Source of the DNA: Neolecta irregularis DAH-3
Lineage: Eukaryota
Direction of reading: 5' to 3'
Assembly (NCBI GenBank): GCA_001929475.1
Contig: LXFE01000257.1
Coordinates: 1 to 64,000, forward strand
DNA length: 64,000 nt
This document shows positions 1,354 through 64,000 of this stretch, piece after piece; the stretch's first letter is position 1, and every line of letters begins with the position of its first letter. Made by a program: the position numbers and the translations under genes. Below the pieces are notes generated by a model. The model was given only the letters and a program-made list of their open reading frames with translations, was not told where the DNA came from and ran no database searches.

Positions 1354-2369
1354 CATCGCTTTTTGCCTTGCTATTGCAAACGCTGCCAGCCACCGATTAA
1401 GCGTCTCTTCGCTCGAAGCTGCCATTCGATAGATTTTCCGATCCGTAATGATTTGGAAACAGTTATCCTTGTGTTTAGCCACCCCGTCAATCTCCACAAC
1501 TTCAGCAATTTCCGCAGTTGGTATTATTTTCTTGACCTTGTATTCCTCACAGTTAAGCTCGCTTTATGACTAGGAAATACCTCCGAATCAGGATAAAAAG
1601 CCAAAGACTTTCCACGAAGTACTATCCATCGTTTCTTCATCTTGTACCGTGATTGGATTTCCAAATGACCCTGCATAATAACTTTATCCTCCTTGGACTC
1701 GGTCGTTTTGTCCGAATTAAATGTAGATCTAATACCCCCAAATCGGGGATGTGAACCCGCAGACGATTTGTTCTCGCTCCCAGAGAGATACCCCCTCTCC
1801 GACCCCGAAATTATGTCCGACGGCGGTCCATCGGCATAATGCGACACATCAATCACTGGAGCACTCAACTGGGTCTCCTCAAGGTGGTCGGTCAATTCGG
1901 CTGTTTTGCGGATGTTATCAACCCAGGAATCAGTATCCGCGCTACTGTCTGCCGAGAAATAAAACGTCCGGTTTCGCGTAAACAAACCAAACACTACCCC
2001 CTTAGCCAGATGCAACTCCAAACGTACCGTTATCCCGCTTCCCTTTAATCCTCGCAGTAGCGGTCATCTCAGTAGTAGGAATAACTCGAAGGACTTTGTA
2101 CTCCTGAACTGTCAACAAACTCTACTTGCACCAGCAATGCCTTTTCATCTTTATAATATGCAAGCTGATGCGGTCTCAGCACGAACCAGCGGCGTTTCCA
2201 CTGCTTTCTCGTCAACCCAACTCACTAACAGAGATACCATCTTCCTTGTTTTTTTGTGCAACCACCCTACATGGACAATCTTTTCACCAGGAAGAATATC
2301 TTCATACAAAACCTCGCCAGCCTCGTTGGTGTCTGATACAGTGCTGGGTAAGGGAGACAGGTGTGTCAT
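1353..2369 (-). CDS. Tandem PH-domain protein (Opy1-like), 5 exons
   Basis: PH1 GWLHKKT..QWKRRWFVLRPHQLAYYKDEK|EYKV and PH2 QGHLEIQ..KKRWIVLRGKSLAFYPDSE|EYKV. Introns include 2204-2237, 2104-2140 (GC-AG) and 1546-1580 (GAG acceptor). Confidence 0.8.
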
Positions 2370-2552
2370 GTGTCGGAAAGGAATTGATCGAGGGATATGA
2401 ACGTCCGAGGTTATATCCTCCTCAGCAACAACACCTTGAATACATAAAACATATATTTAAATAGTGCACTCTGCTTATACAATAGATTAATGCATCTTTT
2501 GCTGCAACATGGCCAAGATGTCCTTGACGCAACTTTATACTTTTCTACTACA

Positions 2553-5500
2553 ATGCCATCACCAGCAGAACTCGCCACCCTGCAATCACATCCCAATGCG
2601 ATTCGCAATATCTGCATCCTTGCACATGTAGACCACGGCAAGACAAGCCTTTCTGATTCATTGCTCGCTTCAAATGGCATCATCTCGGCAAAGTTGGCCG
2701 GAAAGATTAGGTTTGTGTTCAAAAGACAGTGCTGATTACAGGTATCTCGATTCGAGAGAGGACGAGCAAATTCGAGGAATAACGATGAAATCGTCGGCTA
2801 TCTCTTTGTATTACAGAATTATGAGGGCTCAAGAAGATGGTGCGTCTACTTTGTTCTCAACTCAACTGCAGAATCATACAAAGCTTTTGAATACCTAATC
2901 AACCTGATCGATTCTCCCGGTCATGTAGACTTTAGCTCAGAAGTCTCTACAGCCTCAAGATTATGCGATGGAGCTCTAGTTCTCGTAGATGTCGTCGAAG
3001 GAGTATGCAGTCAAGCAAGTCGTTGTTCTTTCCCTCATTAATATCAGACAGTGACTGTTCTTCGTCAAGTTTGGACAGAACGAATTAGACCTATACTCGT
3101 CTTCAACAAAATAGATCGATTGATCACAGAGCTACGATTAACACCCCTCGAAGCCTACACCCATATGACCAAACTTCTAGAACAGGTCAATGCCGTAATG
3201 GGCTCATTCTTTGCCGGTGATCGAATGGAGGAGGATGCAAAATGGCGGGAGAGGAAAGAAGTAGGCGATCTCCATGATGAATTTATCGAAAAGGACGATG
3301 CGGATATTTATTTTGCCCCGGAAAGAGGGAACGTTGTATTCTCAAGTGCAATCGATGGATGGGCTTTCCGAATCGACCAGTTTGCAAAACTGTATTCAAA
3401 GAAAATGGGCATCAAAGAAGCCAACTTGAAAAAAGTCTTATGGGGAGACTATTTCTTTGACCCTAAAACGAAAAAGGTGCTACAGACAAAACATCTCAAG
3501 GGACGAAATTTAAAACCGATTTTCGTACAACTTGTTTTGGAGAATCTGTGGACGGTGTATCATTGTACTGTTATTGAAAAGTAGGTTCGTTGCTACTAAC
3601 TCACTGAGAGCTAATCTCTTAGAAATCAAGAAAAAGTTGAAAAAGTTGTCGAGGCATTGGAATTGAACATTCTTTCACGAGATATAAAGTCAAAGGATTC
3701 TCGAGCTTTATTGTCAACTATAGTATCCCAATGGCTGCCGTTATCTAGAGCAGTTCTCCTTGCAGTCATCGAAGAAATACCCACTCCAAGAGACTCGCAG
3801 AAACTTCGATTCCCTCAAATTATCTCAGAAGCACCTTTTTCCAAAATGCTGTCTCAAGAAATCAAAAAAGCAATGATTTCTTGTGATGGCAGCTCGGATG
3901 CGCCAGTTTCGGCTTACGTTAGTAAATTGATGGCAGTTCCCGAATCAGAACTCCCAGAGAAACAACGAAAGCAAATCACTGCCGAAGAGATGCGAGAACG
4001 AGGTCGTATACGTAGGGAGGCAAAAGGTCTCGAGTTGAAAAACGAATCCACCGAAATCGCCACAAATTCAGCAAATTCCACTCCTGAGGAAGAGCAACTC
4101 GAAGAAAACGAAAAGAAAGACAAGCAAGTGTTGATTGGATTCGCGAGACTGTATAGTGGAGTGATTAAAGTCGGTCAAGAATTGATTGTCCTTGGGCCGA
4201 AATATAAACCCTCGGAACCAGATCAACACATCTCTCGTATAATAGTGAAGAGCCTCTACATGATGATGGGCCGGGATCTACTTTCCCTGGACTCTGTTCC
4301 CGCAGGAAACGTATTTGGAATCGGTGGTCTAGAAGGCAAAGTTTTAAAAAGCGCAACATTGTATAATACTGAAGGAGGTATCAATTTTGCGGGCGTGACA
4401 ATGGGAACGAACCCTATTCTTCGAGTTGCTCTTGAACCTGTTTTTCCGCTGCAGATGGAACAGTTGGTTGAAGGGTTAAAATTGTTGAATCAGGCAGATC
4501 CCTGTGTGCAGGTTTTAATACAGGATACTGGGGAACACGTTATTCTTACTGCAGGAGAATTACACTTGGAGGTTTGTCCTGAGAATAATCACTATACTGA
4601 TAAGATTAGAGATGCTTGAAAGATCTAAGGGAGCGATTTGCAAAGATTGATATCACATCTTCCGAACCTATCGTTTCCTTTAGGGAGACGATCGTTGATG
4701 CAGTTGGTACGTCTTATAAATAAGAGTTGGCACTGAATCTAGATATGACAAAGGACTCGAGAGGAAGAATTGAGGTTTCGATTTCTTCCAAGCAAGTCAC
4801 TCTGCAATTCCGCATCCGACCTTTACCTTCAAATGTCACTGAATACCTAAAAACACATAATTTCCCAGCCAAGGGTGGAGACCGGAGAGCTAACGAAATC
4901 GGGAAAGAAGCAATCGAAGATGTCGAACAAAAGGAACTGGAAATGACACTTGAGAACTTTAAATTAGGGTTGGAGAAGGCTTTTGAAGCCGAAGGGGATG
5001 GGGATTCTTGGGAGGGCGTTGTTGATCAGATATCTGCGTTTGGACCAAGAAAAATCGGCGCAAACATATTGGTCGATCAAACTGGAGTTATTAGGAAATT
5101 GTACGTCTTTAAAATAGCAAAACTAACTAGTCCAGGTTTCCAGCAAGGCTTCCTGAACATGATTTGAAATTCCCAGATTATTGTTCTGGAATCACAACTA
5201 GAGATATTGGAGATCATATCCTCACTGGTTTCCAGCTTTCCGTGTTGTATGGACCTTTGTGCTCTGAACAAGTGGAAGGAATTGCCTGCTTTATCGAGAA
5301 AATCGAACTGTCCATTCCCCAAGACGAGAATGATCGTTCGCGGATATCCCAATTATCCGGGCAAGTAATATCCGCAACTCGCGACGGAATTCGTCAAGCA
5401 TTTCTAGAATATTCGCCACGTCTAATGCTTGCGATGTACACCTGCGACATCCAAACGTCACCCGATGTCCTTGGAAAAGTCTATGCTGTAGTTTCCCAAC

Positions 5501-5877
5501 GACGAGGACACATCGTCTCTGAGGAAATGAAAGAAGGAACTCCATTCTTTACTATTAAAGCGAAAATTCCAGTCATCGAATCCTTTGGATTTGCAGATGA
5601 TATTCGGAAACGTACTTCAGGCGCTGCAAGTCCACAGTTGATTTTCGGGGGATTCGAAATTTTAGATCAGGATCCCTTTTGGGTTCCTACTACTGAAGAA
5701 GAACTCGAAGATCTGGGAGATACTGCGGATAAAGAGAATATCGCAAAGCGATATATGGATTCTATTCGAAAGAGAAAGGTATGTCTCTTGTTCAATGTCG
5801 ACTAAGAAATAAAGGGATTGTTTGTGGAAAAGAAGCTGATTAAGAATGCAGAGAAGCAAAGGACTTTGAAACGGTAG
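2553..5877 (+). CDS. EFL1: Elongation factor-like GTPase for 60S maturation (Efl1/Ria1), 9 exons
   Basis: G1 [28 protein letters not shown]-terminal [14 protein letters not shown]...[18 protein letters not shown]. Introns 2711-2741, 2840-2871, 3015-3047 (GC-AG), 3581-3622, 4572-4609, 4707-4742, 5101-5135, 5779-5814. Confidence 0.95.
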
Positions 5878-8385: not shown

Positions 8386-9565
8386 TCAGCATTGTATCCT
8401 TTACTTACAGCAAAGTCGGAGCTACGGGGGGCGGACATATCCGAGACGTGATAGTCGTCGATAATAGGATGCATCAAGACTGTTTGTTTGTTTATTGTAA
8501 TTACGGCTACAAGTTAGTTTTGATATTCAGGATTCACGACAATTTGTGGGAACTGCGATCCATGGATTTTTTGGGTCCCAGGTCAAGGGTTCACTAGGAT
8601 TAGGATGTATGTTGGGAAATGATACCTGGCGATCATGATTACTTCTTGGCCTTTGTCTTTGCGTTCCATTTTGTATTGGCCATCTGCGATTTGGACGAAT
8701 TTTGATCCACTGATGAAATATAGACTTGCAGCAGTTGAAGTTTTGCTAGAGATGTATCTTGTGCACACGACGCTGAAACCGTCTGTGACGCAAAAGTTCA
8801 ACAGGCTTGGTTCTGGGTTTGTTGTGGAATCATTTATCCAGGAGATGAGCTGTGAGATAGTATCGAGCATTGCGGCGCGGATGACACTGTGGCCGAAATC
8901 TACGCCTTGACGGGAGGGGTCGACGCCTCTGTCTTGGAGTTTCTGGAGGAAGAGAGCAAAGGACTGGGGTTAGACAGAAAAGGAGGCGGAGTTACCCATT
9001 CGCTGTCTGTTCCTCCTTGGACGTGGTCGTAGAATTGATCCGTGAGGGAGGCCTGGAGTTTGCGTTTGATCTTTTTGAAGGAGGCAACGCTGCCGTTGTG
9101 CATCCACATGAAGGAGTTGTATGCCCTGGAAATGTGAGAGGGGGGACAGTACAAGAGAACCATGGATGGCAGTTTGTTTCTGAAAGAGAACCTGGCGGTT
9201 CAGTACCCCGTTGATAACGACGTACCTGCCGTAGAAGCTCTGATGTGGGCAAAGACGAGTCTGCTGCGGGTCTTTTCAGCAAGACGGGCGAGGTTTGAGT
9301 CGTTCCATGCGGGGATGACTGAATTGTATATGCAGGGCGTGAGATGCAGGTGGTTGGTTGTATCATTCGAGTAGTAGCCAATGCCATGGCCATCGCCGTT
9401 GATGGGACGAGCGTGGTCGAGTCGCAGCCGCGCATCGAATGATTGGCTGTCTGTGAGTATAAATGCCTCTTTCTAGGCTTGCTGGATGAGAGAATGCGAT
9501 GGATTTGTGAGCAGATGCGCAAGCACAATGGCGTCGCAGCCTTTATAAAGAAGCAGGCGGCACAT
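8386..9565 (-). CDS. DUG3: Class II (Ntn) glutamine amidotransferase, Dug3-like; 3' end approximate
   Basis: Spliced N-terminus MCRLLLYKG...HSLIHQSFDARLRLD...NGDGHGIGYY, AHIRAST, NCHPW, MHNG, GTDSEW, IASEPLT. First intron 9447-9482 is GC-AG. Confidence 0.88.
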
Positions 9566-9755: not shown

Positions 9756-12324
9756 ATGATTCGCCGCTTCCACTCTCTCCTCAGATCCAGATCTGCTATT
9801 CACCACCAGAGAAACACCCGTCTCTATTCCTCGCCCGTCGCTAAAGCTCTTCTCAGGTCGCTGCGCTTTCCCGCGCTCGGTGCTGGTGCCGGCGTCTCAA
9901 TCCTCGTCTGGGCAGACAACAAATTTGCCGAAGCTGCGGGCTACACAAAAGCAATTTGGGACTCAACTGCCGATACCCTGGCTAAAAGCTGGTCGAATAT
10001 CGCAGATGCTGCGGGATGGTTTCGGTTTAATGGACACTCAAACAAAGATCCCAAATCCACAACAACAATCACCGTGGCTGCGGCTACGGCTGCTGCATAT
10101 GCATTGGCAGACGATGACGACCTAGAAAATACCCGCAACCCCTTTGATGCCAACCACGACGATCAGATAATCGCCCTTACAAAAACAATGATCGAAATCC
10201 GTACCCTCCTTCAACAAGCGGGAAACACCACCGCCCTCATTATGCCCAGTATCGTCGTCATCGGCTCACAAAGCTCAGGCAAGAGCTCTCTCCTAGAAAC
10301 GATAGTCGGCCATGAATTCCTGCCCAAGTGCCTGCGTTCTCCTTACATATTCACTAACTCGCTCAGAGGTAATAATATGGTCACCCGCAGACCAGTAGAA
10401 TTAACCCTCATTCACACCCCAGACTCTGCTTCAGAGTACGGGGAATTCCCCGCTTTGAAACTCGGCCGTATCACGGATTTCTCCCAAATCCAGAAAACCC
10501 TCACAGACTTGAATCTCGCCGTGTCAGAATGGGTCACCGACGATCCAATACAACTAAACATATACTCCCCCCGCGTCCCAGACCTTAGTCTCATCGATTT
10601 ACCAGGATATATCCAGGTCACAAATCAAGATCAGCCTGATCGCCTGCGTGAAGAAATAGAACTCCTTTGTGAAAAATACATTAAACCCCCGAACGTTATT
10701 CTCGCTGTATGCGCAGCAGATATCGACCTAGCAAACTCCACAGCCCTCAGAGCAAGTAAACAAGTCGATCCAAAAGGCGATCGGACACTTGGCGTAATCA
10801 CAAAAATGGACCTCATTCCCGCGCAGGAAGGCTTCGAAATCTTATCCAACAACCGCTACCCCCTTCGACTAGGCTACATTGGCGTGATTTGTAAAGTTCC
10901 CCCACAAGGACTAATACGTCGATCCCGCAACATCACAGATCTCGTAACCAAAAATGAACAAGCATATTTCTCTGGTCACCCAGAGTACGAAAGCTGTGTA
11001 GTCGGCTCACTAAATCTCCGCAAACAGTTAATGAGAGTCCTTGCAAATTCAATGGCAAACAGTCTTCAAGCAACCCACAACCAGGTCAAGAAAAGCCTCG
11101 AACAAATCTCGTACCAATATAAAGTAAAATATAACGAACGCAATTTGACTCCAGAATCCTACGTCGCCCAAACAGTGGACCAAATAAAATCCCATTTCAA
11201 ACAAATCTCATCAAACCTCGACCGTCAAAAAGTCCGAGACCTTCTCAAAGAAAGAATTAACGCACAAGTATTAGATTTATTAGCTGAACTATATTGGGAC
11301 GTACAGGCTCATGAACCCAATATGACTGATCTTCCCCAAGCAAAACTCGACGATAAATACTGGAAAGCGAAATTGGAGACGGCGACCTACCGTCTTACTA
11401 GACTAGGCATAGGCCGTTTATCTACAGAAGCAACAGTCGATCGCGTAAGAGAATTAATCACGCAAATATGTAACGATTCATCTATCCACTCCCACGATTT
11501 CGCGAAACAACAAGTCATTCAAGCTTCTGAAGATATAATTGAACCAAAGGCATATCAAGCATCCGATCAAGTTGAAAATTGTATAAAACCTTTAAAATAC
11601 GAGATTGATATCGAGGAACGTGAATGGGACTGTGCAAGAATCAGAGCACTTGATCTTATTTCTACCGAAATTGAATTATTGGATCATGTTTTTGAGAAAA
11701 TTAGGGAAAGTGTAGGGAGTCGGTATCTTGGTAAAGTCACTTCTCTTCTCAGGGAGCATCAAGATGAGGATATTGAATTATTGGAAGGAAAAAGTGGGTA
11801 CAGTCTTGCTGTTTTGGAAAAGGGTAAGAAAAGAAAAGATTAAATGTAGGAGAGGACTAACATTTTAGGAAAGGAAGCTCTTCGGTGGAAACAACGAGCA
11901 GAGTTACTTCATTTTCGTAAAAGAGTGGTGTCTGGAAAACAATGCAAGTCGGTTAAAAACAGCTCGTTATGTCCTGAAGTTTTTCTTGACGTAGTTGCCG
12001 AAAAACTCGTATCCACAGCCGTGATGTTTATCAACGTTGAATTAATCTCTGAATTCATTCATCAGGTACACCTTTCCTTTTTATCTTCTAGGATATCTTT
12101 AATGGTATTTTTAGTTCCCGAGGGAGATTGATCATCGGCTGTTACAATCACTTACCCCTGAACAAATCGAATCATTCGCACGAGAAGATCCAGTTGCGAG
12201 AGATCATATTGATCTTCAAAGCAAAAAAGATTGTCTTGAACAAGCGTTGATTAAAATTGAGGGAATTATGGCTAGAGATCAACTGTCCAGACGGTCGAGA
12301 AGGAATGCAAGATATAGATTCTAA
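9756..12324 (+). CDS. MGM1: Mitochondrial dynamin-like fusion GTPase Mgm1/Msp1, 4 exons
   Basis: Presequence, two hydrophobic segments, GSQSSGKS, VTRRP, DLPG, TKMD. Introns 10328-10366 (in-frame, no stop), 11824-11868 and ~12066-12114. Confidence 0.95.
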
Positions 12325-12625: not shown

Positions 12626-14799
12626 CTAAATTCTTTGAATATCAACCCTTGTCCTTTCCCACAGTTTATGTTGGACCTCTTGTTGATTTTCTTCTATTTT
12701 CTGCGGATGAATACTCATCTTGGCCCAAGTACCCGGACCCCGCTTCTTTGTCAACGTACCTGGATTAATCGTAACCACATTTTCCACTACTTTAGCAAAA
12801 TGAAATAGTTCACTTGAAATTATCAAGATATCTGGAACCGCCTCGGAAAATTGTGCTAGTCCGAGAAAAGGCACGTCAACTTGTGAGCACGAAGACCCGG
12901 GAAATAATGGGTAAAAGTTTCGTTGGGCAAGTATATGAGAACACTGCCGTGCCATAATATTCTTATGATTTGGAGCCCTGGGAGAAAAAATAAGTTTTGG
13001 TTATAGTTTTGGATTAAACATGCCTCGTTATTTCTTCTTTTGATAAATGTAATAATATATCATTTGTCGAAACGCCGAGCGCGATCTCGTTCAATGAGAA
13101 TAATGCTGGGTTTGGAAGACACTTAAAGTTCTCCTTTGTCAATTTATTTCATTTGGGAAAACAATACTTTTGGTAATCCCATGTTTTTCCTGTCGAATCC
13201 TTGTTGAGGCCAACATGCATGCTTGTCACATGCATCCCTAGTGCTTGGAATCATGATAACTGTGGTTGAATTCGGTATTTGAGCGAGTTTACTAATCACC
13301 ATGTGTTTGAAGAAATCATCTAGAGTGGTGATGTCGGGGTTATCTATTTGTAAATCCCCGGAGACGACCATCGGGTTGTTTATATCCAGAAAGGGTCCAA
13401 GCTATTAATTCAGTAGGATTAAACATAGACAGAGTTTCACTAGAATTGCAACATCAGGCTTTTCATCGATTATCTTGTTGATTAGATCGGTTAAAGGTTC
13501 AAATTCAAGATCGTCTTCAGTAGTATACGGTCCTGAAGCAATGACGACTGACAAAGGCGTATCCCCAACTTTGTCTCTATAGTTTTTTATTTCTGCGATT
13601 GGAGTAATTGGCATCGGCAACATGGGCGTCTTGAGTAAGTCAAAAATATTTATATAACATACCGAATATATTTCTTTCACAGCAAAGTATCCTCCACCGG
13701 CATCATTACCTCTTAAAGCGACGATTTGTCCTGGAAAGAGAGCATAACTCGGGATATCATCAATCTTTAAGGGAACACGTGCGCCAGCACCTAGTCTTCT
13801 AGAAGTCTCGAGAACTAGCGAAGCAGGATTCAATCGACCTCCTGTAATCGAGTCACTTGCAATTCTCCCAATTGCAATTATATCAGTTTGTGATATTCTT
13901 GACGGATTTCCGAGATCATCCTCCGTAAAACTATGATGTCTTTGAAAGACTTCAGTAAACATCTCAATTCTATCGTCAAGAGCTGGAAATAAGCAAAATC
14001 CAAGGATACATAAGGATTTGTACTTTCTGAAGCGTCCATTAGCTTTTGATGCATTATCTTGAAAGAATATTTTGATAAATCAAGATTAATGGTCATTTTC
14101 ACTCGTGGTTCAGCATGATCCACAGGTTTGGCAATTTCCAGGTTGGGATTCAGGGTGTCGACTACCAGACCGGAATTTGTGCGTTGGGAGTAAGGCGTTA
14201 TTCTATATTATCAGAATATCTTTTGCAAAATAAATTTTGAACGATGTCAATTGGTTCTCTTTAAAGTTGGCAACAGGAGTCAACGGAGTTGTCCCAGTTG
14301 GAGTTTCGTTATTCAAAACCCTGGATTTGGTCTGAATCGGAGTTTCGTTCTGATTATTTTGACTTTTTCGTTTGATTCGTGGTGTGTTTGGACTTGATCC
14401 CTCCAATCTTCAATCAGTCTCATGTATCGCAGTTCCATACATATCATCAATATCCGCAGTCTTCCCAGCCCTCTTCTGGGGACCTTGATTATAATTCTTC
14501 TTGCGTTTATTTTTAATTTCGGTTTCAAGTCGGTTTTGAAGACCTTTCTTGAACATCCTTGCATTACTGAGATCAAGCTGCCGATCGTCTGCCATTTCAA
14601 TGCACCACGATTCCCATTTATAGAACAGTTCTAATGGTGAAATACTATACAGCCGAAGCATAGAAAGACATTCAGCCATGATATCCGGTTGATTCTCGAG
14701 AACTGGACCAAAATGGCTTCGCAATTCTGCTTCTACAGTATCGGATGAATTGACATTGATCGGTCCTTCATCGATTTGCATGGAATCTGCAGAATCCAT
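12626..14799 (-). CDS. POL12: DNA polymerase alpha/primase subunit B, 8 exons
   Basis: ELFYKWESW, LETSRRLGAGARVPL, ALFPGQIVA, ASGPYT, GPFLD, INPG motifs. Last intron 12978-13023 is GC-AG. Confidence 0.92.
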
Positions 14800-15683
14800 C
14801 TTGGATCGAGAAATGAACTGCACGAAGGTCTTGGACTGTGAACAAGGAAAGTTGGTACTGCAGACAAGTTTAGACGTGAGAGAAACGTGACTGGATGAAA
14901 CATGTGCATCGGAAGCGATTCTTCGGCGTTAATGTTGGAATGACAAATGCAACCTTTTTGTCTAATCTTTCTGGCCATCGACTTTTCGGTGAAATCACCG
15001 ATTTACCTTGAACATTCGCGTTGTTCCAAAAAACAATATGGAACCCTGACAGCTATTCGTCTTCTTAGGTCGATGGAAACCACTGTCGTAATTTGATGCT
15101 TCGTCTTGTGAAAACAAACGAGTCTGGAATCCTGACGGCAATTTGTCACTTTCGGTTCCTTTTTCTCCCATGTCCCGGTTTTAGATTGACACCAAAAAGC
15201 TGTCTTGTTCTCTATTTGCGAGAATTCTCAACCTTTACCATCCTTAAACTATAACCATAAACAGCCTCTTAGTATCTGTTGAACACAAATCGAACGGGAT
15301 TTCTTTTCCGGTGGAGATAATACCCATTCATGCCGATTGTGATTTGTTCTAACATCCTTGTTCTGAGCTAATGGAAAAATTGACGATCATGAATTCATGT
15401 GTTTTTCTTTAAGGAATCTCTAAAGGACTTCTCAGCGCCGGTCCTCTTCATGGCCCCGCACTTCACTCCAGCTCGCTTGTTTGATTCGATAATTGGTCCG
15501 AGCCGTGATCTTCTAGTTGGTCTAAGATAGCGCACCGCATTCAGTTTGGAAATCTTCCCCACCCCTATTTTGTCGTAAACTACTCCAGTCTGGGCCGTGC
15601 TGTGAAAAGAAGACGTCACAATCATTCCCTATATCCAAAACTTATATCCATACAATATCCAGCTTGTCCTAACATCCTGAACG

Positions 15684-25400: not shown

Positions 25401-28165
25401 TGAGACAGCAATCGCTACTCTTGTCGATTGTGAGAGGTTCCTAAGCATCAACAGTTCAAACAAGAACCTCTCGAAATGGTTACAAGACATTGAAGAGTGG
25501 ACGTCCAGAGCAACAAAGAATGATCTAAACTATTAAAGGAAATTCTAACCATTCTAGGTTTGATGATATCAAAGAGCTCATATCAACTCGGCGTGTCCTT
25601 CTGTCGATTCTCAATAAATCTGCGTCGTTGCGAGGTCGACTCCACATTAAAGAAGCAGAAGCACAGGTTGCGCTTGCGAAATGGACATCTGATAGCATTG
25701 ACACAGCACTGAAATTCAAAGAACCACAGGCGGCCTTGACAGATCTCGCTTACTTGGATTGTCTAGCTAATATTCCAAGCTATCTAAAAAAGTTTAAACT
25801 TGCAAACATTCTTTGGGAACAAAAGCTAGAACCTGAGGCCGTCAGATTACTGGAGGAACTAGGAGGCATTGATGATAAAGAACTAAAGACTCATGGGGTA
25901 CGAAAATCGAGGATACATGTTCTGATGGTATAACACATCTCAGGAAAATCAGTTAACTTGCAGTCTCGTTGGTCGGCTGAAGCTCGTCTTATGCGGACCG
26001 GAGCGATTTGTGGATACCTTGAAAATGCACTTAATGAATTGAACCAAGGAAAATGTCAGTGGGGTGAGCTTTTTTATACTTACGCAGAAATATGCAGCTC
26101 TCAATACGAGCAGCCAGAATTCAACGACGAAATGAAACACGCACAGGAGATTTTCCTGAAAAAGGATATCGAAGTTCAGGCCTTGAAAGCATCATACCTG
26201 AGAAACACAGATGACATCGAGCTTAAAAGACGCTTCTACATAGCTAACAAAATGCGAAATTCAGATTCACAGGAACTTTCGCGTCTGCAGCAACGATCCC
26301 GTAACTATTTGGAAACTGCTATTCGAATGTATCTTGAGTGTCTCAAGATTTGCGATGACTTTGACGATTGTATATTTCGACTGTGTGCTCTATGGCTTTC
26401 CAAGTACGACCAAACCCTCGATTCATATTGCTATACGAAATTTCGAGACGTTGCATCCCACAAGTTTATCCGGATATTCAACCAACTTTCTTCTCGACTG
26501 GATATTCAGCAAGGACTCTTCCAAGAAGTGTTGGTTCAGTTATTAACTCGTGTTGTTGCCGAACATCCCTTCCATACTATATATGCAGTTTTCGCCATAC
26601 AAAACATGACAAGTTCCTCGAATGCCGCATATGATACTAGTCCCGTTAATAGATCTAGATCCCAAGCCGCAAAATTTCTACTTGATGGTTTCTCTCAAAT
26701 CAACAGTTCCATGGCTTCCTTACGGTCTCGTGTTGAGCGACTTGTCAAAAGCTATATCGACCTAGGTGTAATAAAACCCAACACTCAGGGTCAATCCATC
26801 AAGCTTCCAGAGAATAAACACAGAGTTTTATTTAAGGATCTTCCACGTTGGAAATTTCCCAATCCGACGAGCAAAATTCCAATCAGCATTACCAAGAATT
26901 ATGCACAAATGCCAATCATTCAGAACATAGACCCTAACGTCAAAGTTGCTTCTGGAAATTCAAAACCCCTGGTCTTTAAAGTACTGGATTCAGATGGTAT
27001 CTGGCATCGTCAGATCGTATATTCATTAACCATCCTACTGTTGACGAATTAGGTCAAAAATGGTGACGACCTCCGCCAAGATTCTGTCATGGAGCAAGTC
27101 TTTGATGAAGTAAATATCGTCCTTCAACGTCGAAGAGAAACCAGATATCGGTCACTGACTATCAAGACCTATGTCGTTGTTCCTCTTTATCCACGAGGAG
27201 GTCTCATTCAGTGGGTTGACAATACAACTGCGCTCAAAGAGTATCTCAACAGTCGTCATCATAAATATTACAAACACGACCTCAAATTCATCAAATGTCA
27301 CGAGCTTGTGGGTAATGCGCAGGGCGCACAGCGAATCAAGGCTTTCAAGAATGTTCTCGAGAATTTCCATCCTGTGATGAATCATCTCTTTCTCGAAGAC
27401 TACACCGACCCCGAAGTTTGGTTCTCCACGCGCGTGAGATACGCTAGAAGTTTGGCTATTATATCTATTGTGGGCGAAATCATTGGCCTAGGGGATCGCC
27501 ATGGCTTTAACATTCTTTTTGATCAACAGACTGGCGAAGTCGTCAATATTGACTTGGGAATAGCATTTGAAAAGGTAGCATGTGTCCAAATGTACTGGCT
27601 TGACTCTACTAGGGCAAAACGTTGCCTGTACCCGAGATGGTCCCGTTCAGATTGACGCAGAACCTAGCAAGTGTCTGCGTGGTCGGATATTGACTTTCAG
27701 GTTGATGGTCTGGGTTATCAAGGTGTTGAAGGAACCTTTCGTCGATGTTGTGAAATTACGCTCAGCGCTCTACGAGAAGAGAAAAAGAGTATTATGACGA
27801 TCTTGGATGTTCTAAAACATGATCCACTTTACGACTGGTACACGTTAGCTCATTGAGGCATCATTTAAACACTTTAGGACAATCAGCCCTCTCAAGCTTG
27901 CTCAAATCCAGGATCGGTACAATGTTCAAACCGGACAAATCACCGATCCACATGTGAAATCTGCCAATATTAATTATCCGGAAGCCGAACGAGCACTTTT
28001 CACGGTTACCAAAAAATTAACTAGTACCCTTGGAGTCGAGGCCACTGTCAATGAACTCATTCAGACAGCACAGGATGTCGAAGTCCTTGCCATGATGTTC
28101 CAAGGTATGCTGGCCCGCTTGTTTTATTCATTTCTGATTAAACAGGATGGGGCGCATGGCAGTGA
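19435..28165 (+). CDS. TEL1: ATM/Tel1 PI3K-like kinase; start approximate, ~8 exons
   Basis: TAN-like [12 protein letters not shown] region, kinase [27 protein letters not shown], and FATC-type end LAMMFQGWGAWQ*. Intron 27667-27700 is GC-AG. Confidence 0.93.
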
Positions 28166-28293: not shown

Positions 28294-31200
28294 TCAACCT
28301 AATTTAGCAATATTCATCATCTCTTGAATGAAAATCTTTTCCAGTTCCACAAGAGGAACTTGGTTGTTAGTTGTGGGGCTTTGAATCACATCTCGAGCTG
28401 TCTGAGCGGGCGAGTAGTTTACAATGCGACTACTGTTTCTCTTATTCGAAAGCAAATAATCACTTGCCACAGTTTGCGCTTCAAGATATCCAATATCAAC
28501 GTTGGATATATTCTCTGTACTCTTGAATGCAGATGTCCGGGGTTCATATGGCCATCTCTTTGACGCAAAGGGAGTTTTTGGGATGATATTTTCATCTAGA
28601 AATGGGTTGGCTTTCGCCAGCAGACATTGTATATCCAATGACTCTCCAGGCAAGATGGGCGTGGGGTGTGAAGGGGTAACGCAGTCTAAATCGACCTCCT
28701 TTCTCAAAACTTTATCGATATCAACGGCTGAGAAAAATGCGCATCCCTGAATTTGGATTAATTTGAGTGAAAAAGAAAGGTGTACCTGGGGAACATCATT
28801 AATTCCAAGTTGTTGACAGAACATGGCTCTCGTCCATAGATTACTGATCTGTAAAGCCATTGCAGCGCGATATTTATCCTCCTCTCTTACCAAATATCTG
28901 ATTTCATCATGAACAGTCAAAGATAATCGAGCGTTAATATTATATCGCCGTATTAAATATTCCATTGAAACAATAAGTAAATGAAGATAATCAACACCAG
29001 ACGATTGAATGGCCCAATTGATCCGGGAAGTCATGAAAGCTCCTTTGCTCAGATTTTTTCGTAGTAAGGCTTCGGTGATTGTACATCCTAAGACGGGTGT
29101 CCTGGGTACGTCTTCCTCAGCTATTTCCTCCAGTTTGTTAAACACGAAACTCTCTGTCCCCCCTCGCCAGAACTTCTTTTTACTATTTGTGGGATTCTTT
29201 GGAGAACCGCAAAGAGATACTAATTTATGACCTTTTGTTGCTTTGTAGAGATTCGCAGCAACCTTTTTAGCGTCGACTTCTGATATTGAAGGATTAAATT
29301 GCTGTAGGAGCTGACAAGCGAATGGCAAGCCGGCACCATAGATCCTTCCGTAATTGAAGATCTGCAGCCTGTAAGATTGAATTGGTGAAATTATGATACC
29401 TTGGCAGCATTACGAGAAATTCCCAAAATGCTTGCTGTTTTCGAGTGCATATCAGTTCCCGCAGACTTTGTTCCTTCAAGAGTCATCCATCCCATGGCGG
29501 TTGCTCCATGGTGTTTGAATTGGGCGTCACCAATCAAACTTGCAATCCATAATTCTTCTGAGCTGCGAAGTTAGCCTTTTTTTCAGTGTCAACCAGTCAT
29601 ACTCGACATCAGCACCGACAAATGTATATCCTTCAGGGGCTCTGACCATAGCTTTCAACTCTGAACCGATCCTATTTTTCTTTGCATTGCTGGCCGTGAG
29701 CCAAGTTTTTTCCACTGCTCGTCGAGTAATAGTTCCCATAGGAATAATCTGAGGTAATATTACACCGATTTCCAAGTTTTCGTCGACTCCTAAATCATGC
29801 TCATGCGACCCCCAAACAACAAACTGTGAAGTGATTCGTTCTCGAGCACATATCCAATATGAACAAGCCGCGTTCATATTTAGAGCGTCGCGAGCATACA
29901 AGAATTCTGATTCCAAGAGCCCATCTTCGAAAGCTTTTATATAATTCTTAGCCATTGGAGAACAACAGCGCGCAGCGGCACCGTCTTTATGAGGAACTTT
30001 GAAATATATTCCTTCGGTATCGAGTTGGAGTTTTTTGTTTGGATCTTCAGAAAAATCACAACGAACAAAATGCTTTGCTTCATAGAGTATCGAGTTAGAG
30101 GAGTCCACAAGGCGGAATGTCCAGCCGTATTTGTCGGACCAAACAAGGGGATTCTTTTCCCATGATAGGCGCAGGAGGAGGGGAGCAATGCGTGTTCGGA
30201 CGGAAATATTTATTGGTTTTGTTGATGTGGGATGTAGCGCTCTGTACCATTTAGGGTAGCCAGGTAGAAACGATCCTTTCGGAGGTCGCAGTTCCTTTGT
30301 TTTTTTGTCCATTACTTCTTGAATCTTTTGGACTGACCAATCGAGCTGGCAGAGCCACGGATCTTTTTCGATCTCATCAGGCGAGTCTTTTAATTTCAAG
30401 GCCTCATTAGCGAGGGTAATTAACCTTTTTTGGATTTCTGTTGACATTTCTTGATAGATCTCTTCAGCCTTTGCAATGTAATGTTTCCAGGATTTGTTCA
30501 CCGGAAGAAAAACGGATGCAAGGCGAGTAAGGCCGACAAAGCTTACTGGATGGGGACAAACTTTCCGAAAGGAAGGGAAGACTGCTTTGTACACTTGGTG
30601 AGTGATTCGGACATCCTCCGCGCAATATTTGATAAGCTCTTGGAACCGGTCGAAAACCCCATCTCTGTCTAATTCACCAAAGAGATCTCGGGTAGACTTA
30701 TCGGGAAGGATGTTGCAATGAAACCGAGCCACTTCAAGGAGACTGTTTGTTGAACTTTTCGAAATCCACGGCTCGTCAAATTCTTCGAATTCAATGACTT
30801 CAAGTATACTAGCCAATTCTGCTGCATTTGCTTCTGCAGTAATCTGTTCCTTTAGTTCTTTATTTTTCCTGTGTTTAAGCCATGTTGGTCGTTGGCGAGA
30901 ACACATTCCATTTACAGCAACGTGAAGAGACATAGTATCGATAAATGCTATTCTATGCTCTTTGAAATTATATTGTTCCCTAATTCGTGCTCGATCGTAA
31001 CCGATATTATGACCAACAATTACACGTTCTTTATCTGAGGAAGGAAGAGGAATCAAATGTTCCGGCTTATCGGAGTGTCCAGTGATCCAAGGGGAAACCC
31101 ATATATACCATGCCTCGCTAGAAGCAGCGCAGGCCATGACAGCGTATTTTGATATTTTGTACAAAACTTCAGTATCAAAGACGAGGCAGTCATCTTGCGG

Positions 31201-31899: not shown

Positions 31900-32885
<986 letters not shown>

Positions 32886-49332: not shown

Positions 49333-50866
49333 ATGGACCTGTACATCCGCGGCGCTGCCATTCTGCGCCTGCTCGCCGCCAAGAACGGCTCCCTCAAAGC
49401 CCTTGCCACCTCGTCTCCCAACTCAAAGCGCATGTATGCTCTCCTGTGCCAATCCCTTAAATGTATATATCGGTTTAATAGTCTTGTTCTCATCATCTGG
49501 AGACCAGGATGTCCTCAAGCAGGTCATCTGCTCATCCCGACTGCTCGAACAGGAACAAAGGGTTGCTCTTCATATCCCAGTCGCTGACGCCTCGTAGCTT
49601 TCCCTTGAAATCGCTCTTCTCCTCGTCCACGACCTTCTTCTCTGCAAGAACGGCATTGCAGCAGGCAAGGGGCCCTTCAAAGACGCAGTCCTCCGTCACA
49701 AAACACGTCTAAAGGCAGAATTCGCAAGAGCAAAGATTCGCTCCCGTACAGTCGAAAGCAAGGATTTGGAGAGAAAAAATCACAGTATCTCCCAGGCAGA
49801 CATCTCCCCACTGACCTGCAGAAGTCCTGCCAAGGTGGGTTCGAATAAATACCCTCAAAACAACCTTGCACTCTGCTCTCGAAACCTGCCGAAATGACTA
49901 TACAGAGGTCGAGAATTGGTCCCAGCTCTCTCCTTCGTCATTCTGTATCGATGCCCTCATCCCGAATTTGCTTGCTTTTCATTCTTCCTGCAACCTGATC
50001 ACCCACAACCTATACACGGTAGGTCACATCATCCTTCAAGACAAAGCTTCTTGCTTCCCGGTACACATTCTCAAGTATATCATTGCATATGACTGCTTCT
50101 GACATTTAGTCCACCCTTGGGGGCCTGTGTGATAGATGCTTGCGCTGCCCCAGGAAACAAGACCTCTTACCTGGCAGCCTGTGTCGGAAAGCAAGGTCGA
50201 GTTTATGCATTCGAACGAGACAATCAAAGGGTCCAGACCTTGTCTACTATGATGGAAAAGAGTGGTGCTGACTGTATGTATGATCAACACTCTTCGATAT
50301 TGACATCAGGCGTACATATTCAACATTTAAACTTTCTCAAATCCAACCCTTGCAATTTCGCTAATGTCACGCATATGTTGCTCGATCCGTCGTGCTCCGG
50401 AAGCGGTATAGTCAATCGATTGGATTATCTTGTAGAATCTCAACAACAAATTGATCAAGACCGGTTGGCAAAACTGGCCGAATTTCAAGTCCAAATCATC
50501 CTTCATGCTATGAAATTTCCATCCGCAAAGAAAATATCTTATAGTACATGCTCTATACATCCACAAGAGAATGAGCACGTCGTGATGAGAGTCCTCGACA
50601 AAATCCAAGATTGGACCCTTGCTAATCAACAAGACGTCCTCCCAAGTTGGGAAACACGCGGTATCGCTGAAGAATGCGGTGGTGATAAAGGTTTACTTCT
50701 TCATTTTGGAATTCCTCTTATGATAGATCTCGCCCACAGCCTTGTGAGGTGTAATCCTGGGGCTGATGGTACTATTGGATTCTTTGCCGCGCTTTTCGTC
50801 CGAAAGTCCTCAAATAAACGCACACTACAAGATCCTCCTACTTCCAAAAAGAAGAAACGCAAGTAA
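49333..50866 (+). CDS. RCM1: 25S rRNA m5C methyltransferase Rcm1/NSUN5, 7 exons
   Basis: PRWVRINT, ILQDKASCFP, DACAAPGNKT, DPSCSGSG, YSTCSIHPQENE, GFFAALF. Confidence 0.92.
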
Positions 50867-56784: not shown

Positions 56785-57558
56785 ATGACTTCCACCCCTC
56801 TAGTCACTCCACAATCTGCGAGATTCTCCATCCCTCAATCGTCTATCGCGTCTTCTGTGCGTGCCTCTCTGTTAAAGCGATCTTCTATCTATGACAAGAA
56901 CCTAAATCGTACCAAGGGAGCTGAAACCAGCTTGTCTGCCTTTTTCTTCCTCTTCTCGGAGCTTATTCAGAATGTCCAACGCCAGGTCCAGGCAATCCCT
57001 GATCTCGAGAGAAAGTAAAACAATGCCTCGCTCTGCGCATGAATTCTGATTAGGCGAGGTTGAACGAGCACGGCTATCGTGTGGGTCAACGTTCTCTCGA
57101 ACTGATTATCTGGAGAGATCGGAATTCAAAGAGGGAAACACGGATTTTGTCACTTCTGCAATTCATACATACCTTTATTTGGAAAAGTCTGTTTGCCAAG
57201 ACTGCAGATGATTTAGAGAGAAGCACGGAGAACGATGACGAATGCATGACAGTATATTATGTATTCGAGTTAATAAGTGCAGATATGATCTATGATAATG
57301 ATCCCTTGGTCAATCGTTTCATCTCGGTGCCCAAAGAAATGTCGAGTCTCAATTGCGGTGCCTTTGTGGCGGGAATCATAGAAGCCGTATTGGACGGTTC
57401 TCAGTTTGTATATACCGTAATCGAATAAGAGAGATGCTGACTTGTAGCCCTCAAGAGTAACGGCCCATTCGTCCCCAACCGAAGCATTCCCGCAACGAAC
57501 AGTGTTCCTGATAAAACTGGATAAATCGGTGTTAGAACGCGAACAGTTCCTCAAATAA
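56785..57558 (+). CDS. TRS31: TRAPP complex subunit Trs31/TRAPPC5, 4 exons
   Basis: [45 protein letters not shown]. Introns 57015-57058 (GAG acceptor) and 57244-57282 (GC-AG). Confidence 0.93.
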
Positions 57559-59033: not shown

Positions 59034-59150
59034 ACCCTTCCGCACGAGGGGACGTCGAACGTATCTCCTTCTTGCCTTTTACCAGATGGAGCCGGGCGTC
59101 CGCTTGGCTAATGCGGATATGCAGTTTTTGGAATCCCTCTCTGAGGGTAA
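59034..59150 (+). ncRNA. U5: U5 spliceosomal snRNA
   Basis: Invariant loop I GCCTTTTAC (59074-59082) in ctccttctt...cagatggag stem followed by CCG. Outer stems tccgca/tgcgga and ggacgtc/ggcgtcc. Sm site AGTTTTTGG (59123-59131). 3' hairpin ccctc-tct-gaggg. Ends are approximate. Confidence 0.92.
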
Positions 59151-60376: not shown

Positions 60377-60633
60377 ACTAATAAACTATCACACCCAAGA
60401 TCTTGGACTCTTCTCTTTCCATAGGTGATTTATATGCTACTGTAGGACTTTTTCATCTCAATTTATTTCTTATACAAGTGCTATAGTAGTTACACATTCC
60501 CGAGCACATATCTTTCCGTGAACTGAAAACCAAACCGTGACTTGCAGGCTTGAAGTTGGAAACTACCAGTACCCGTTATCACTCTCTAATCTGCGCATTC
60601 CTGTCATCTATCCAATGCGCCAAGGTCATTGAG

Positions 60634-62753
60634 CTACCGAAACTGAAGTTTCCGCTGGCTTTTAGCTTCAGATGGGCTTGATTTCCTTTTACTCAACTTG
60701 ACAACCTGTCTTACTGAAGGGAGAGGCCGATCATCCTTAGATAAGCCTTTCGCGAAATGCCAATCGTCGTGTTCTTCGCGTTCAACAAATGGTATCAACT
60801 TCCCGTTGCATTTGTCGCACCGAAAACAGAACTCTTCGTCATGAAGAGTGGTGTAAGAACTAAGAGGTGATGCGAAACCTTTTGGTGATGCATATCCAGC
60901 TTCAGGGGAATAGTCTTTAGAGTTCTCAGTGTCGCTTGATCCGGCGTTATTTAATCCCTTTGATTTCTGTACGCCATCATGTTTCGTCTCTGATGATTCG
61001 AAAAATCTCTGAATTCCTCCTGTCTTAGTCTTTTTGAGCCCAGGTAGATGAAAAGATTCAGCTGTGCGTTTCGCCAGTTTGGCTTCTTCGCCTTTTAATA
61101 AAAAGGCCTAAGTATCATTAAACAACACCGCCGCGACAATTCTTACGGAAATGCCTCTCACTCCATCTTCAGCGCCTTCAAACCCGGTGAGACCAACGCT
61201 CAACATCGTACAAGGGTAACAACCATTTTCACTTTCAAGAGATTTCATTAGACTGACCGCCAGATAACTCGTATAGTCAGCCGTCAATTCCTTCCCAATC
61301 GGAATTGGTGCTTGACGTGATTTGTTGGCTCTATTAATACCCCGCTAGCAATAAGTATGGCCATGGGGAAGGAATATACATGATGAAGAGTAATAGTCTT
61401 AGGGCGCCTGGATAAGGGATCTTCGAGCAGTCTCGATGCAAGGTCAGCGGTCAATATGCGCATCCAGCGTTCCTGCTTTTAAGTTTTCATTCAAACGGGA
61501 TATTACCGCCTGCTCAATGTTGCCGATATTTGGTCGAAAATTCTTGGCGCTCATCATTGACTTGATCTGTGTTCGCGGGTTGACTAGCTGTCAATTACGC
61601 ATGAGTCCATGACGAACCTTCGGAATAATCAATGCCTCTTGAAATGGAATAAACCCAGGGCCCAGTTTCTAGGCCGAGTTTTCCTCGCAGTTCGTCAACG
61701 GAAAACCTCCTTTCACTGAGTCGGGGTCCGACACCAATACATGTACCAAAGCTCTCGACATAATTCGGTATTCAAAGATTCAGACACTTGCTCCCCCAGT
61801 TTCCCGCCCAAGTTACGAATTTTGGTGAACTTTAAATCAGCCAAAAATCCCATAACTGCTCGATCGCGGATAATGGTCTGCAATTAGCCCGATAATTGCG
61901 AGCGTGCTACCTGTTGATTCGGTTTCCGATAGGCAGAGCAAAGTTTAGCCAGCATTTTGTTCTTCGCAACGCCTGCTGAACAGGTATATTTAAGCTCTTT
62001 GAGAACGTGCAAACGTATATCTCTAACGATTTCGGCGCCAATCTGCAGACAGATATCATCCCAATCAGGAGGACCTTCCTCTGACTCCTCTTGTGACAGA
62101 GGAATTAGAGTGCCATGATCATCGATCCAATTACATGCAAGAGGAAGAGGAAGGTTGCAGGAGGCGTCGCCGTCGGGAGGAAAGGCTAGATAGGGGTACC
62201 TGTCTAGTAATTTTTCCCTAACAAGAGTAGAGAGATCAAGAAAAGATTCTGGGGTGATCAACTCATGTTCAGCGGCTGGAGTATGTACCGTCTACAGAAG
62301 CCTTCTCTGAAAGTGAGATATTGTATTAGCGGAGATGCAGTACCAACAGTATCGCAGTGCTGTCGGAAAATCTCGAGAATCTTCCTTCCCTCTCGGCGAT
62401 AAGGATCCAGAGAGACTACGCATGAGAAAGAGCACGAACCCCAAGGCACCTTTGTGGGTGGCCATATCGGGATTCAGATGATAGTGAGGCTTAACCTGGT
62501 CCTCCTTCCAAGTTTGGACATGCTGAAGAACCAGATGAGGACATTTCAGTAGCGCAGACTCGATGGTCTCATGGCGTGTCAACCCAAAAGCTCGGGCTGG
62601 GTAGTTGACCGCAATTATGCTGCGCCATTGCTGTACTGCCAATGGGGTATCAGGGGATAGCTGCAGGCGAACAAGCTCGACTTGTGAGTAAAAAGCGTCA
62701 AGATCGATATGGGCAATCACGCGCAGTGGCGAATCTCGGGCAGGTGCACGCAT
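60634..62753 (-). CDS. RAD30: Y-family DNA polymerase eta, 10 exons
   Basis: HIDLDAFYSQVE, IAVNYPAR, KVSLDPYR, EKASVD|ESFLD, CSAGVAKNKMLAKL, UBZ (CDKC..EHDDWHFA), PIP-like QRKLQF*. Confidence 0.93.
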
Positions 62754-62989
62754 AGCGGCTGGCGCTAGATGGCGGAACGAAAAACGCGACGTCGCTGTTG
62801 CTGCCCAGCTGGATGGTGGTAAAGACATCGCTGGAGAGGTGTTTGCGACTTGGAGTGATAGGGCATCTATAGTACCTATTAATGCACAGTGAATGCTTCA
62901 CAGTAGACGCGATGAATGCGCACTAAACAATGACAGCAGAACACAGGTATGTTCAGGTAGGTGAGGCCTTGATGAGAATCCTGAGACTG

Positions 62990-63260
62990 GCACCGGTCTA
63001 GTATTGTTTAAATGTGATGGGTTGTAATGGGATAGTGTAGCAGAAGGGATGGACTGATAGTGTGTATATGCAATATGTAGTTGGATTGGCGGATGGTAGT
63101 GGGGATAGGGTCGTGATTCTTGATGGGACAGTCTATGGGATAGAGTAGGGTAGGGTTGTAGGATAAGATACGATGAACAGGATGGTGGATGGTGGATGGT
63201 AAATGAAATAGAATTGTGGTGGTAGATGGTAAATGAGATAGGATGTGGTGGTAGTTGGGG
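62990..63260. repeat. G/purine-rich low-complexity tract with a ~30-nt tandem duplication
   Basis: gatggtaaatga(a/g)atag..tgtggtggta at 63195-63224 and 63225-63254; gatggtg repeats. Confidence 0.7.
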
Positions 63261-63516
63261 ATGAGGTCGTTTGCAGGGGACCATGCAGAAGCTGCATGTA
63301 TGCGCGTGTTGCTGCCCGCGCCCCACTCCACCACCTTTGTCGTTCCTTGCACTGCCCTTCCATTGTCCTTGTCTGCTATCGCTCCCCTCCCCTCCCCTCC
63401 CTTTCCTGCCTGTCTGATTTCTTCCCTCTGACACTCCATCCATTTTCTCTTGCTCTTCCCGGACAACCTTCCTTCGGAGTCTTATCATCAGGCCTCGTCG
63501 ACTCCCATCACCCTCC

Positions 63517-64000
63517 ATGGGTAACTGGTGTTCCAACTGTTGCGGTCGTATTAACCTGCTCGCCAGTTTCATTGCTGACCTTTAAGGACAGTCGCAGTCT
63601 GGACTATACGAACCGCTGCTCCAAGACAACGAACGTGAAGCTGTTGCTGATCTCCTACAATATCTCGAAAACGTATCTCATCCCTTGTCTGTCTGACGTG
63701 TTAATCCTGTAGCGTAATGAGACGGACTTTTTTAGCTCGGAACCTCTGAGAGCCCTAACGACTCTGGTATATTCGGAGAACGTTGACTTGCAACGGAGCG
63801 CTGCACTAGCATTCGCTGAAATCACCGAAAAAGGCATGTCCACTTCAATGTGCCATCTTGAATTGTATAGATGTCAAAGAAGTTACTAGAGACGCCTTGG
63901 AACCAATTCTCTTCTTACTTCAGAGCTCAGATATGGAAGTCCAAAGAGCAGCTAGTGCAGCTCTGGGCAATCTTGCGGTTAACAGTACCCTCGATCCAAA
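63517..64000 (+). CDS. VAC8: Vacuolar armadillo-repeat protein Vac8 (5' part, runs off the window)
   Basis: MGNWCSNCC myristoyl/palmitoyl N-terminus, [16 protein letters not shown]-like segment, [28 protein letters not shown]. Intron 63834-63870 is GC-AG. Confidence 0.95.

Follow-up and report, generated by a model that had tools for sequence, protein, structure and literature searches.

Seven introns that begin with GC and end with AG interrupt protein-coding genes in the window analysed here (64,000 nucleotides of nuclear DNA from Neolecta irregularis DAH-3, positions 1 to 64,000 of contig LXFE01000257.1), and comparison with homologous proteins confirms, at the level of sequence, that all seven are real at their positions. 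By sequence, they are ordinary U2-type GC-AG introns, unusually frequent in the window. Very probably, they are U2-type introns with compensating donors in a genome of tiny introns and loose donors, where a change from T to C at +2 is tolerated, and they make up some 6-8% of the introns of the window. A preliminary description had listed seven GC donors. Each was found where it had been placed and with the hexamer quoted; GC at +1/+2 and AG at the 3' end were verified for all seven, and once the GC...AG segments, 33-46 nt long, are excised, collinearity with homologous proteins is restored at 7/7 sites.

Both of the public proteins from Neolecta itself that the searches returned (P0001 and P0003; 2/2) use the GC donors; such public models could themselves be homology-guided. 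P0003 corresponds to the Opy1-like gene (a double-PH-domain gene), where the intron 2140..2104 on the minus strand (37 nt, aag|GCATTG, phase 0) is flanked in the protein map by exon ends at 2141 and 2103, joining residue 65 to residue 66. Over this junction, QLAYYKDEKEYKVLRVIPT (YYKDEKEYK), homologues keep the same length in 144 of 149 alignments. P0001 uses the GC donor of DUG3, whose intron 9482..9447 on the minus strand (36 nt, cca|GCAAGC, phase 2) splits a His codon; P0001 and P0002 align gap-free over LLTNPSHSLIHQSFDARL.

The other five GC introns were fixed by alignment to solved structures or homologues. In EFL1, the upstream exon before the intron 3015-3047 on the plus strand (33 nt, caa|GCAAGT, phase 0) stops at residue 126 of 5anb_K, and the downstream exon resumes at 127/128, its second residue being 128. 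The POL12 gene (DNA polymerase alpha subunit B) carries the intron 13023..12978 on the minus strand (46 nt, gag|GCATGT, phase 2); the junction is collinear with P0005 by tblastn (EEISRNPTVPN versus EEITRAPNHKN), and with P0004 to within one residue, POL12 being one residue longer than one of the two homologues. In the TEL1 kinase domain, the intron 27667-27700 on the plus strand (34 nt, cta|GCAAGT, phase 0) follows an exon of 18 codons, 27613-27666, which corresponds to residues 2787-2804 of 6sky_A, the next exon beginning at 2805. A search with this short exon gave E 0.06 for 6sky_A, and 19/19 matches were PIKK kinases. The TRS31 intron 57244-57282 on the plus strand (39 nt, aat|GCATGA, phase 1) would, if retained, keep the frame without stop codons, and the read-through product has 119 residues versus 106 over the same span in TRAPPC5 chains (2j3r_B, 2j3w_B, 7b6d_F), that is, 13 extra. 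Finally, the exons that flank the VAC8 intron 63834-63870 on the plus strand (37 nt, aag|GCATGT, phase 1) correspond to residues 30-68 and 70-107 of 5xjg_A, with residue 69 coming from the split codon.

The GC introns fall within the size range of the GT introns (31-61 nt, median 37, n=85). Introns of the U12 type are characterized by the donor RTATCCTT and the branch sequence TCCTTAAC; inspection of the seven GC introns by eye revealed no U12-type donor or branch motif. The 85 GT introns used for comparison derive from a core of 82, from which seven wrong calls were taken out and the VAC8 intron was transferred to the GC list, while 11 checked introns were added, two of them replacing removed calls at the same donor; this set is thus semi-curated and partly parser-derived.

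As a group, the GC donors are compensated. A is present at +3 in all seven and G at +5 in 6/7. The two occur together in 6/7 GC donors versus 22/85 GT donors (Fisher P=0.003), and versus 5/20 in a smaller but cleaner GT set (P=0.009). Matches to CAG|GTAAGT outside +1/+2 come to 4.43 for GC versus 3.01 for GT donors (permutation P=0.0002), the GT value rising to 3.15 in the cleaner set (Mann-Whitney P=0.015 versus GC). Taken individually, only GCATTG and GCATGA fail to surpass the average GT donor. The earlier assertion that several GC donors lack strong compensation from +3 to +6 therefore does not apply to the group, which lies nearer the consensus than the GT donors, with two of the seven excepted. 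The enrichment of +3A and +5G, together with the excess of consensus matches, means that donor pairing still appears to be under selection. A stronger remainder of the donor in GC introns has been described for humans and lower organisms (PMC3167603).

We infer that the GC donors are used in vivo, through a pairing mechanism of the following kind. The major spliceosome would remove GC-AG introns like their GT-AG neighbours, with which they share their size and the kind of 3' end. A C at +2 would lose one pair in the contact with U1 (and later U6), and this loss would be offset by the near-constant A at +3 and G at +5. With tiny introns and very loose GT donors, T-to-C at +2 would be accepted more frequently than most fungi allow, which would account for the share of about 6-8% that GC-AG introns reach in the window.

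The GT donors of the window are indeed weak, as had been proposed: the consensus base is found at -1 (G) with a frequency of 0.62, at +3 (A) of 0.66, at +5 (G) of 0.44 and at +6 (T) of 0.53 among the 85 donors, and the information outside GT is at most 0.55 bit per position. Two of the six odd GT hexamers that had been singled out are borne out by collinearity, while the other four stand on the ab initio parse or on reading. GTTCTC belongs to a second DUG3 intron, 9160..9126 on the minus strand (35 nt, atg|GTTCTC), whose donor is used in P0001, with P0001 and P0002 ungapped over the junction. GTGCCT opens the in-frame MGM1 intron 10328..10366 on the plus strand (39 nt, caa|GTGCCT); compared with 6rzt_A and 6ql4_A, the read-through translation carries an insertion of exactly 13 residues, flanked by FLPK and GNNMVTRRP.

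The window contains 92 trusted introns, or 104-121 when weaker ab initio predictions are included, with which the earlier estimate of about 110 is compatible. The share of GC-AG is thus 7/92-121, or 5.8-7.6% (95% confidence interval roughly 2.4-15%), whereas 130 fungal annotations average 1.009% (PMC7072748, Table 1); the contrast first drawn, of about 6% with a usual 1% or so, is upheld for the window. At a rate of 1%, at least seven GC-AG introns among 110 would be expected with a probability of 1.3e-4. The count of seven is a lower bound, since GC donors in poorly conserved genes escape vetting, and it leaves out the GC candidates that our parser placed at 15662, 16521, 16649, 19842, 21352 and 51116. 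In the searchable literature, an excess of GC-AG introns was found described neither for Neolecta nor for Taphrinomycotina, and no paper links GC-AG introns with Pneumocystis.

From this count in one 64-kb window, a raised share may be extended to the whole genome. It is conceivable, at somewhat below even chances, that N. irregularis has about 5-8% GC-AG introns genome-wide, with recognition of +2 relaxed and introns of about 37 nt read across the intron. If so, GC-AG would be a regular second class of donor in this species, which would surpass all other intron-rich fungi in this respect, with base composition providing no explanation, and in related species with tiny introns many GC-AG introns would be missing from the annotation. 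A sampling outlier, in which the seven introns are real and the genome as a whole has about 1-2.5% GC-AG like other fungi, is somewhat less likely. The count comes from a single window, what gets reported is what stands out, and the lower end of the 95% confidence interval lies at 2.4-3.1%. If the Neolecta genome is taken to comprise about 225 such windows, a rate of 2% would yield some 1.2 windows with at least seven. However, at 1% the chance falls to about 1e-4 per window and 0.02 per genome, and seven is a minimum for the GC donors present.

Other alternatives bear on the introns themselves. If nearby GT donors were used in vivo, the GC models would be artefacts of forced homology. In-frame GT alternatives do exist at 4/7 sites, at +9 in Opy1, -12 in EFL1 and, with another acceptor, at -45 in DUG3 and +4 in POL12, but each of them deletes or inserts residues within ungapped conserved blocks. 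Thus, the EFL1 donor at 3003, the one picked by a GT-only parse, would drop VCSQ, which aligns to vc-q of 5anb_K; the POL12 donor at 13019 with its later acceptor would, as read by eye, shorten the protein by four residues. The Opy1-like alternative, also read by eye, would add three residues and leave an intron of only 28 nt, whereas no trusted intron is shorter than 31 nt. Reading of the TEL1, TRS31 and VAC8 sites revealed no in-frame GT alternative. This explanation is accordingly very improbable, and still more remote is the idea that the C at +2 stands for a T misread in sequencing or assembly. Nothing was found in its favour, and it would take seven independent errors, all falling on +2 of an intron and preferring donors with +3A and +5G.

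The preliminary description had also proposed a lineage-specific spliceosome in which intron length, more than the strength of U1 pairing, defines the intron, which would leave +2 free to vary. The tiny donor information outside GT speaks for it, as do the bounded lengths around a median of 37 nt and a YTRAY branch motif that is present in only 51/85 introns, its A being 7-13 nt away from the exon; short lengths, low donor information and a sparse branch motif fit recognition across a short intron. This much of the proposal stands, but the part that calls for a special machine is doubtful and, on our assessment, has a low probability. Enrichment of +3A and +5G at GC donors would be unexpected if pairing were irrelevant. 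No donor besides GT and GC was verified, and those decoy introns that fell at junctions already checked proved to be alternative boundaries of known introns or to interrupt conserved coding regions. The window contains a single spliceosomal RNA, U5, and its loop is canonical. Moreover, weak 5' sites are no evidence of a lineage-specific machine, because they are regarded as a general rule among intron-rich species (PMC8476143, citing Irimia 2007).

The heavy GC-AG lineages offer a useful comparison. GC-AG accounts for 56% of 241 mapped junctions in Emiliania huxleyi (PMC4028052), 14-17% in Aureococcus anophagefferens and about 14% in Pelagomonas calceolata (bioRxiv 10.1101/2024.10.30.620910), and 4% in Cyanidioschyzon merolae, as cited in the latter preprint. 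In these organisms, as in the Neolecta window, GC-AG introns form a regular class and are no mere exceptions. High genomic G+C has been given as the reason for the excess (PMC4028052; bioRxiv 10.1101/2024.10.30.620910). Those lineages combine high G+C with a larger share, whereas the Neolecta share is lower and comes from one window, in which G+C is 44.7% overall and 40.7% in the introns. The seven introns themselves are of a textbook minority class, with a GC donor, an AG acceptor, no U12-type motifs and a stronger remaining donor; they differ from ordinary U2-type GC-AG introns, which amount to about 1% in fungi, animals and plants, in their density, where the interest lies, and in being only 33-46 nt long. 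Fission yeast splices by intron definition, and the 85 GT introns of the window have the architecture that goes with tiny introns so defined, namely narrow lengths and weak terminal signals. Weak donors, narrow lengths and a branch near the 3' end are also common to the window and to short-intron, intron-rich fungi with loose 5' sites (PMC8476143). Were the share to hold genome-wide, Neolecta would be an intron-rich fungus of moderate G+C in which about one intron in 15 begins with GC, and a natural test of how far +2 can be relaxed in the setting of tiny introns and loose donors.

Intron prediction from signals was of limited use here. Our own exon-chaining ab initio gene finder, whose use was confined to a rough total and the GT comparison set, recovered at one setting 12/21 introns fixed by homology or annotation, and varying the intron penalty moved its total between 70 and 174 introns. 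With a penalty of 4 bits it called no GC donor among 71 introns, and each decoy dinucleotide was called at most once; with no penalty, GC was called 14 times in 114 introns when allowed, versus GA 19/115, GG 8/107, AT 20/114, TT 23/115 and CT 15/112. The parser could not separate GC from decoy dinucleotides, and the case therefore rests on protein collinearity. A scan based on signals alone (donor context, branch, acceptor and length) showed no excess of GC over 14 control dinucleotides, with, for example, 20 GC sites observed versus 32.9 expected at a threshold of 14; even for GT the enrichment was no more than about two-fold, because any start near a true intron profits from the score of its 3' half. 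A count of open reading frames bridged by candidate introns was uninformative, thousands of candidates being obtained for every donor dinucleotide, and a loose regular-expression search was too noisy.

Gene finders restricted to GT mis-model such genes: when only GT donors were allowed, the parser lost conserved residues from EFL1, DUG3 and TEL1 and cut POL12 short. The public protein set may lack the final exon of POL12, a homologue search with it having returned no protein from Neolecta itself. Several further GC calls were rejected. That at 50142 lies, by reading, inside the DACAAPGNKT motif of a methyltransferase gene, and at 9497 and 57330 the parser offered alternatives to junctions already known. 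The call at 61154 is displaced by a true GT intron, 61146..61108, and the one at 29319 took a wrong acceptor in MIP1, where the true intron, 29399..29362, begins with GT.

Seven genes of the window are interrupted by a GC-AG intron, each confirmed at the level of the genomic sequence and its alignments: in each of the seven cases conserved protein sequence is retained by the GC donor alone, or far better by it than by any alternative. These donors had been picked out in the preliminary description, and the hexamer quoted for each was indeed found at its coordinate in 7/7. The junctions were tested against homologues one exon at a time or by read-through translation. In the Opy1-like gene (intron 2104-2140, minus strand), mapping of the public Neolecta protein P0003 to the window places the end of residue 65 at 2141 and the beginning of residue 66 at 2103, so that the public model itself makes use of the 37-nt GC intron. 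Of 149 homologue alignments, 144 show the stretch QLAYYKDEKEYKVLRVIPT of this protein at the same length, and the other five are offset by -2, +1, +3, +4 and +4. A GT donor 9 nt downstream was discarded; it would add three residues within a conserved block and leave an intron of only 28 nt. In EFL1 (3015-3047, plus strand), the upstream exon matches the solved-structure chain 5anb_K through residue 126 (…vegvc-q), and the second residue of the downstream exon aligns with residue 128 of the same chain. The DUG3 intron (9447-9482, minus strand) is present in the public Neolecta protein P0001, where it splits a His codon, and the homologue P0002 aligns across the junction without a gap. The VAC8 intron (63834-63870, plus strand) lies between exons corresponding to residues 30-68 and 70-107 of chain 5xjg_A, with the split codon in between.

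The three remaining junctions were settled in the same manner. An 18-codon exon of TEL1 corresponds to residues 2787-2804 of chain 6sky_A, with weak E-values, yet 19/19 of its matches are PIKK kinases; the exon after the GC intron (27667-27700, plus strand) begins at residue 2805. In TRS31 (57244-57282, plus strand), the 39-nt GC intron is in frame, and its read-through product exceeds three TRAPPC5 chains by 13 residues. Across the POL12 junction (12978-13023, minus strand), the Pyronema homologue P0005 is collinear by tblastn and the Protomyces homologue P0004 differs by one residue; a GT alternative was rejected, its product being 4 residues shorter. The last POL12 exon (12629-12976, minus strand; 116 residues) lies 3' of this intron. 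A homologue search with it returned proteins of Protomyces and Pyronema only, and no identical Neolecta protein; the public Neolecta model of POL12 may end at the GC donor, as does our own GT-only parse.

How large a share these seven represent depends on the total number of introns, which was estimated with a self-written exon-chaining gene finder, trained on the long ORFs of the window and on its own predictions. This program is only moderately accurate (12 of 21 independently fixed introns were recovered), and its total varies from 70 to 174 introns with the intron penalty. A core set of 82 introns common to three settings was therefore curated: seven wrong calls were removed, the VAC8 GC intron was shifted to the GC list and 11 checked introns were added, two of them substituting removed calls at the same donor. 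The curated total is 92 introns, 85 GT-AG and 7 GC-AG, rising to 104 to 121 when weaker non-overlapping predictions are included, so that the figure of about 110 proposed beforehand is reasonable. The GC-AG share is accordingly 5.8-7.6%, with 95% intervals spanning 2.4% to 15%. The probability of at least seven GC donors among 110 introns is 1.3e-4 if the true rate is 1%, and 6.8e-3 if it is 2%. Seven is a lower bound, since poorly conserved stretches hold six further GC candidates.

Splicing signals alone do not reveal this excess. A scan of the window that combined donor context, branch, acceptor and length found GC no commoner than control dinucleotides. Run with zero penalty, the gene finder used 14 GC donors versus 8 to 23 for the decoys GA, GG, AT, TT and CT, and with a 4-bit penalty it used none. 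The case for the seven introns thus rests on protein collinearity and not on ab initio signal. Two further GC calls were false: that at 29319 was due to a wrong acceptor in MIP1 (DNA polymerase gamma), and that at 61154 stands where an ordinary GT intron is found eight bases further on. The MIP1 intron at 29362-29399 (minus strand) carries two AGs 7 nt apart, TTACAG and GCTGCAG, and, read by eye, a conserved block of 11 residues is kept only with the second. In the triose-phosphate isomerase gene, the second intron (32171-32211, plus strand) has the 3' end …GACTAAAG, in which the sole branch-like A stands about 4 nt from the exon, nearer than in the other introns; in place of this intron and the exon that follows it, the gene finder called a single false intron of 123 nt.

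The introns of the window are tiny and their signals loose, as had been described. The 85 GT introns range from 31 to 61 nt (median 37), and their donors carry at most 0.55 bit of information at every position outside GT (-1G 0.62, +3A 0.66, +4T 0.46, +5G 0.44, +6T 0.53). The most frequent hexamers, GTACGT and GTATCT, occur 7 times each. In 51 of the 85 introns a YTRAY motif places its A 7-13 nt from the exon, and CTRAY is present in 33. Two of the odd donors pointed out earlier were verified: GTTCTC in DUG3, which is used in P0001 and lies within the ungapped alignment of P0001 and P0002, and GTGCCT in MGM1, where read-through yields exactly 13 extra residues relative to chain 6rzt_A. This MGM1 intron (10328-10366, plus strand) and the TRS31 GC intron are both 39 nt long, in frame and stop-free; if either were retained, the protein would gain 13 residues and remain intact. 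According to PMC8476143, conservation of 5' sites is lower in intron-rich species than in intron-poor ones, so that loose donors are expected in Neolecta and not peculiar to it.

It had been proposed that a lineage-specific spliceosome defines these introns by length rather than by the strength of U1 pairing, and that several GC donors lack the usual compensation. All seven GC donors have +3A and six have +5G; the two occur together in 6/7, as compared with 22/85 among GT donors (P=0.003, one-sided Fisher test). Outside +1/+2, matches to CAG|GTAAGT, a sequence complementary to the 5' end of U1, average 4.43 for GC and 3.01 for GT donors (permutation P=0.0002). Because the 85-donor set derives in part from the parser, the comparison was repeated with 20 GT donors fixed by annotation or structure alignment (8) or by conserved motifs read by eye (12). 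Here +3A with +5G is found in 5/20 (P=0.009), with a mean of 3.15 matches (Mann-Whitney P=0.015). With a score based on the profile of the local GT donors, the two classes were not distinguished (P=0.18). The GC donors as a group do not lack compensation; two of them, GCATTG and GCATGA, are no better than the average GT donor. In this respect the Neolecta donors resemble GC donors in general, in which the C at +2 mismatches U1 and the remainder of the site is stronger on average (PMC3167603, Introduction). This compensation speaks for a continuing role of donor pairing in Neolecta, against that part of the proposal.

The simplest reading of the sequence is that the seven are ordinary GC-AG introns of the major spliceosome. 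They have the size of neighbouring introns, and U12-type motifs were found in none of them. The sole spliceosomal RNA gene in the 64-kb window, for U5 (59039-59149, plus strand; Rfam RF00020, 65.3 bits, E 1e-8), has the canonical invariant loop GCCUUUUAC and an Sm-like site AGUUUUUGG. The data can be explained without a lineage-specific spliceosome; what is unusual is the density of GC-AG introns, not the introns themselves.

The mean GC-AG share over 130 annotated fungal species is 1.009% (PMC7072748, Table 1), and the available text of that paper names one fungus, Meyerozyma guilliermondii, as far above average. GC-AG reaches 56% of 241 junctions in Emiliania huxleyi (PMC4028052) and 14-17% in pelagophytes (bioRxiv 10.1101/2024.10.30.620910). 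Heavy use of GC-AG has been tied to high G+C in the papers on these algae and in PMC3167603. Unlike them, the Neolecta window has 44.7% G+C and its introns only 40.7%, so that this account is inapplicable.

The GC-AG excess in Neolecta appears to be unreported. In its main text, the paper on the Neolecta genome uses none of the words intron, splice, RNA-seq and transcriptome, and its annotation methods are in the supplement (PMC5309816); GC-AG is unmentioned in PMC8476143, a paper in which both Neolecta irregularis and introns are mentioned, and our literature search returned no report joining GC-AG with Neolecta or with Pneumocystis. Public gene models already contain the GC donors in 2/2 genes checked (Opy1-like and DUG3), so these introns were known to annotation. 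The importance of the finding depends on the genome-wide share. Finally, the spacer that lies 3' of the Opy1-like gene (~1130-1330) has a stretch of ~55 nt (…GCTTGCATTTAATTTG…TAATATAGTAGTATCTAGTGGTATTCAATTA, minus-strand view) in two copies ~95 nt apart.
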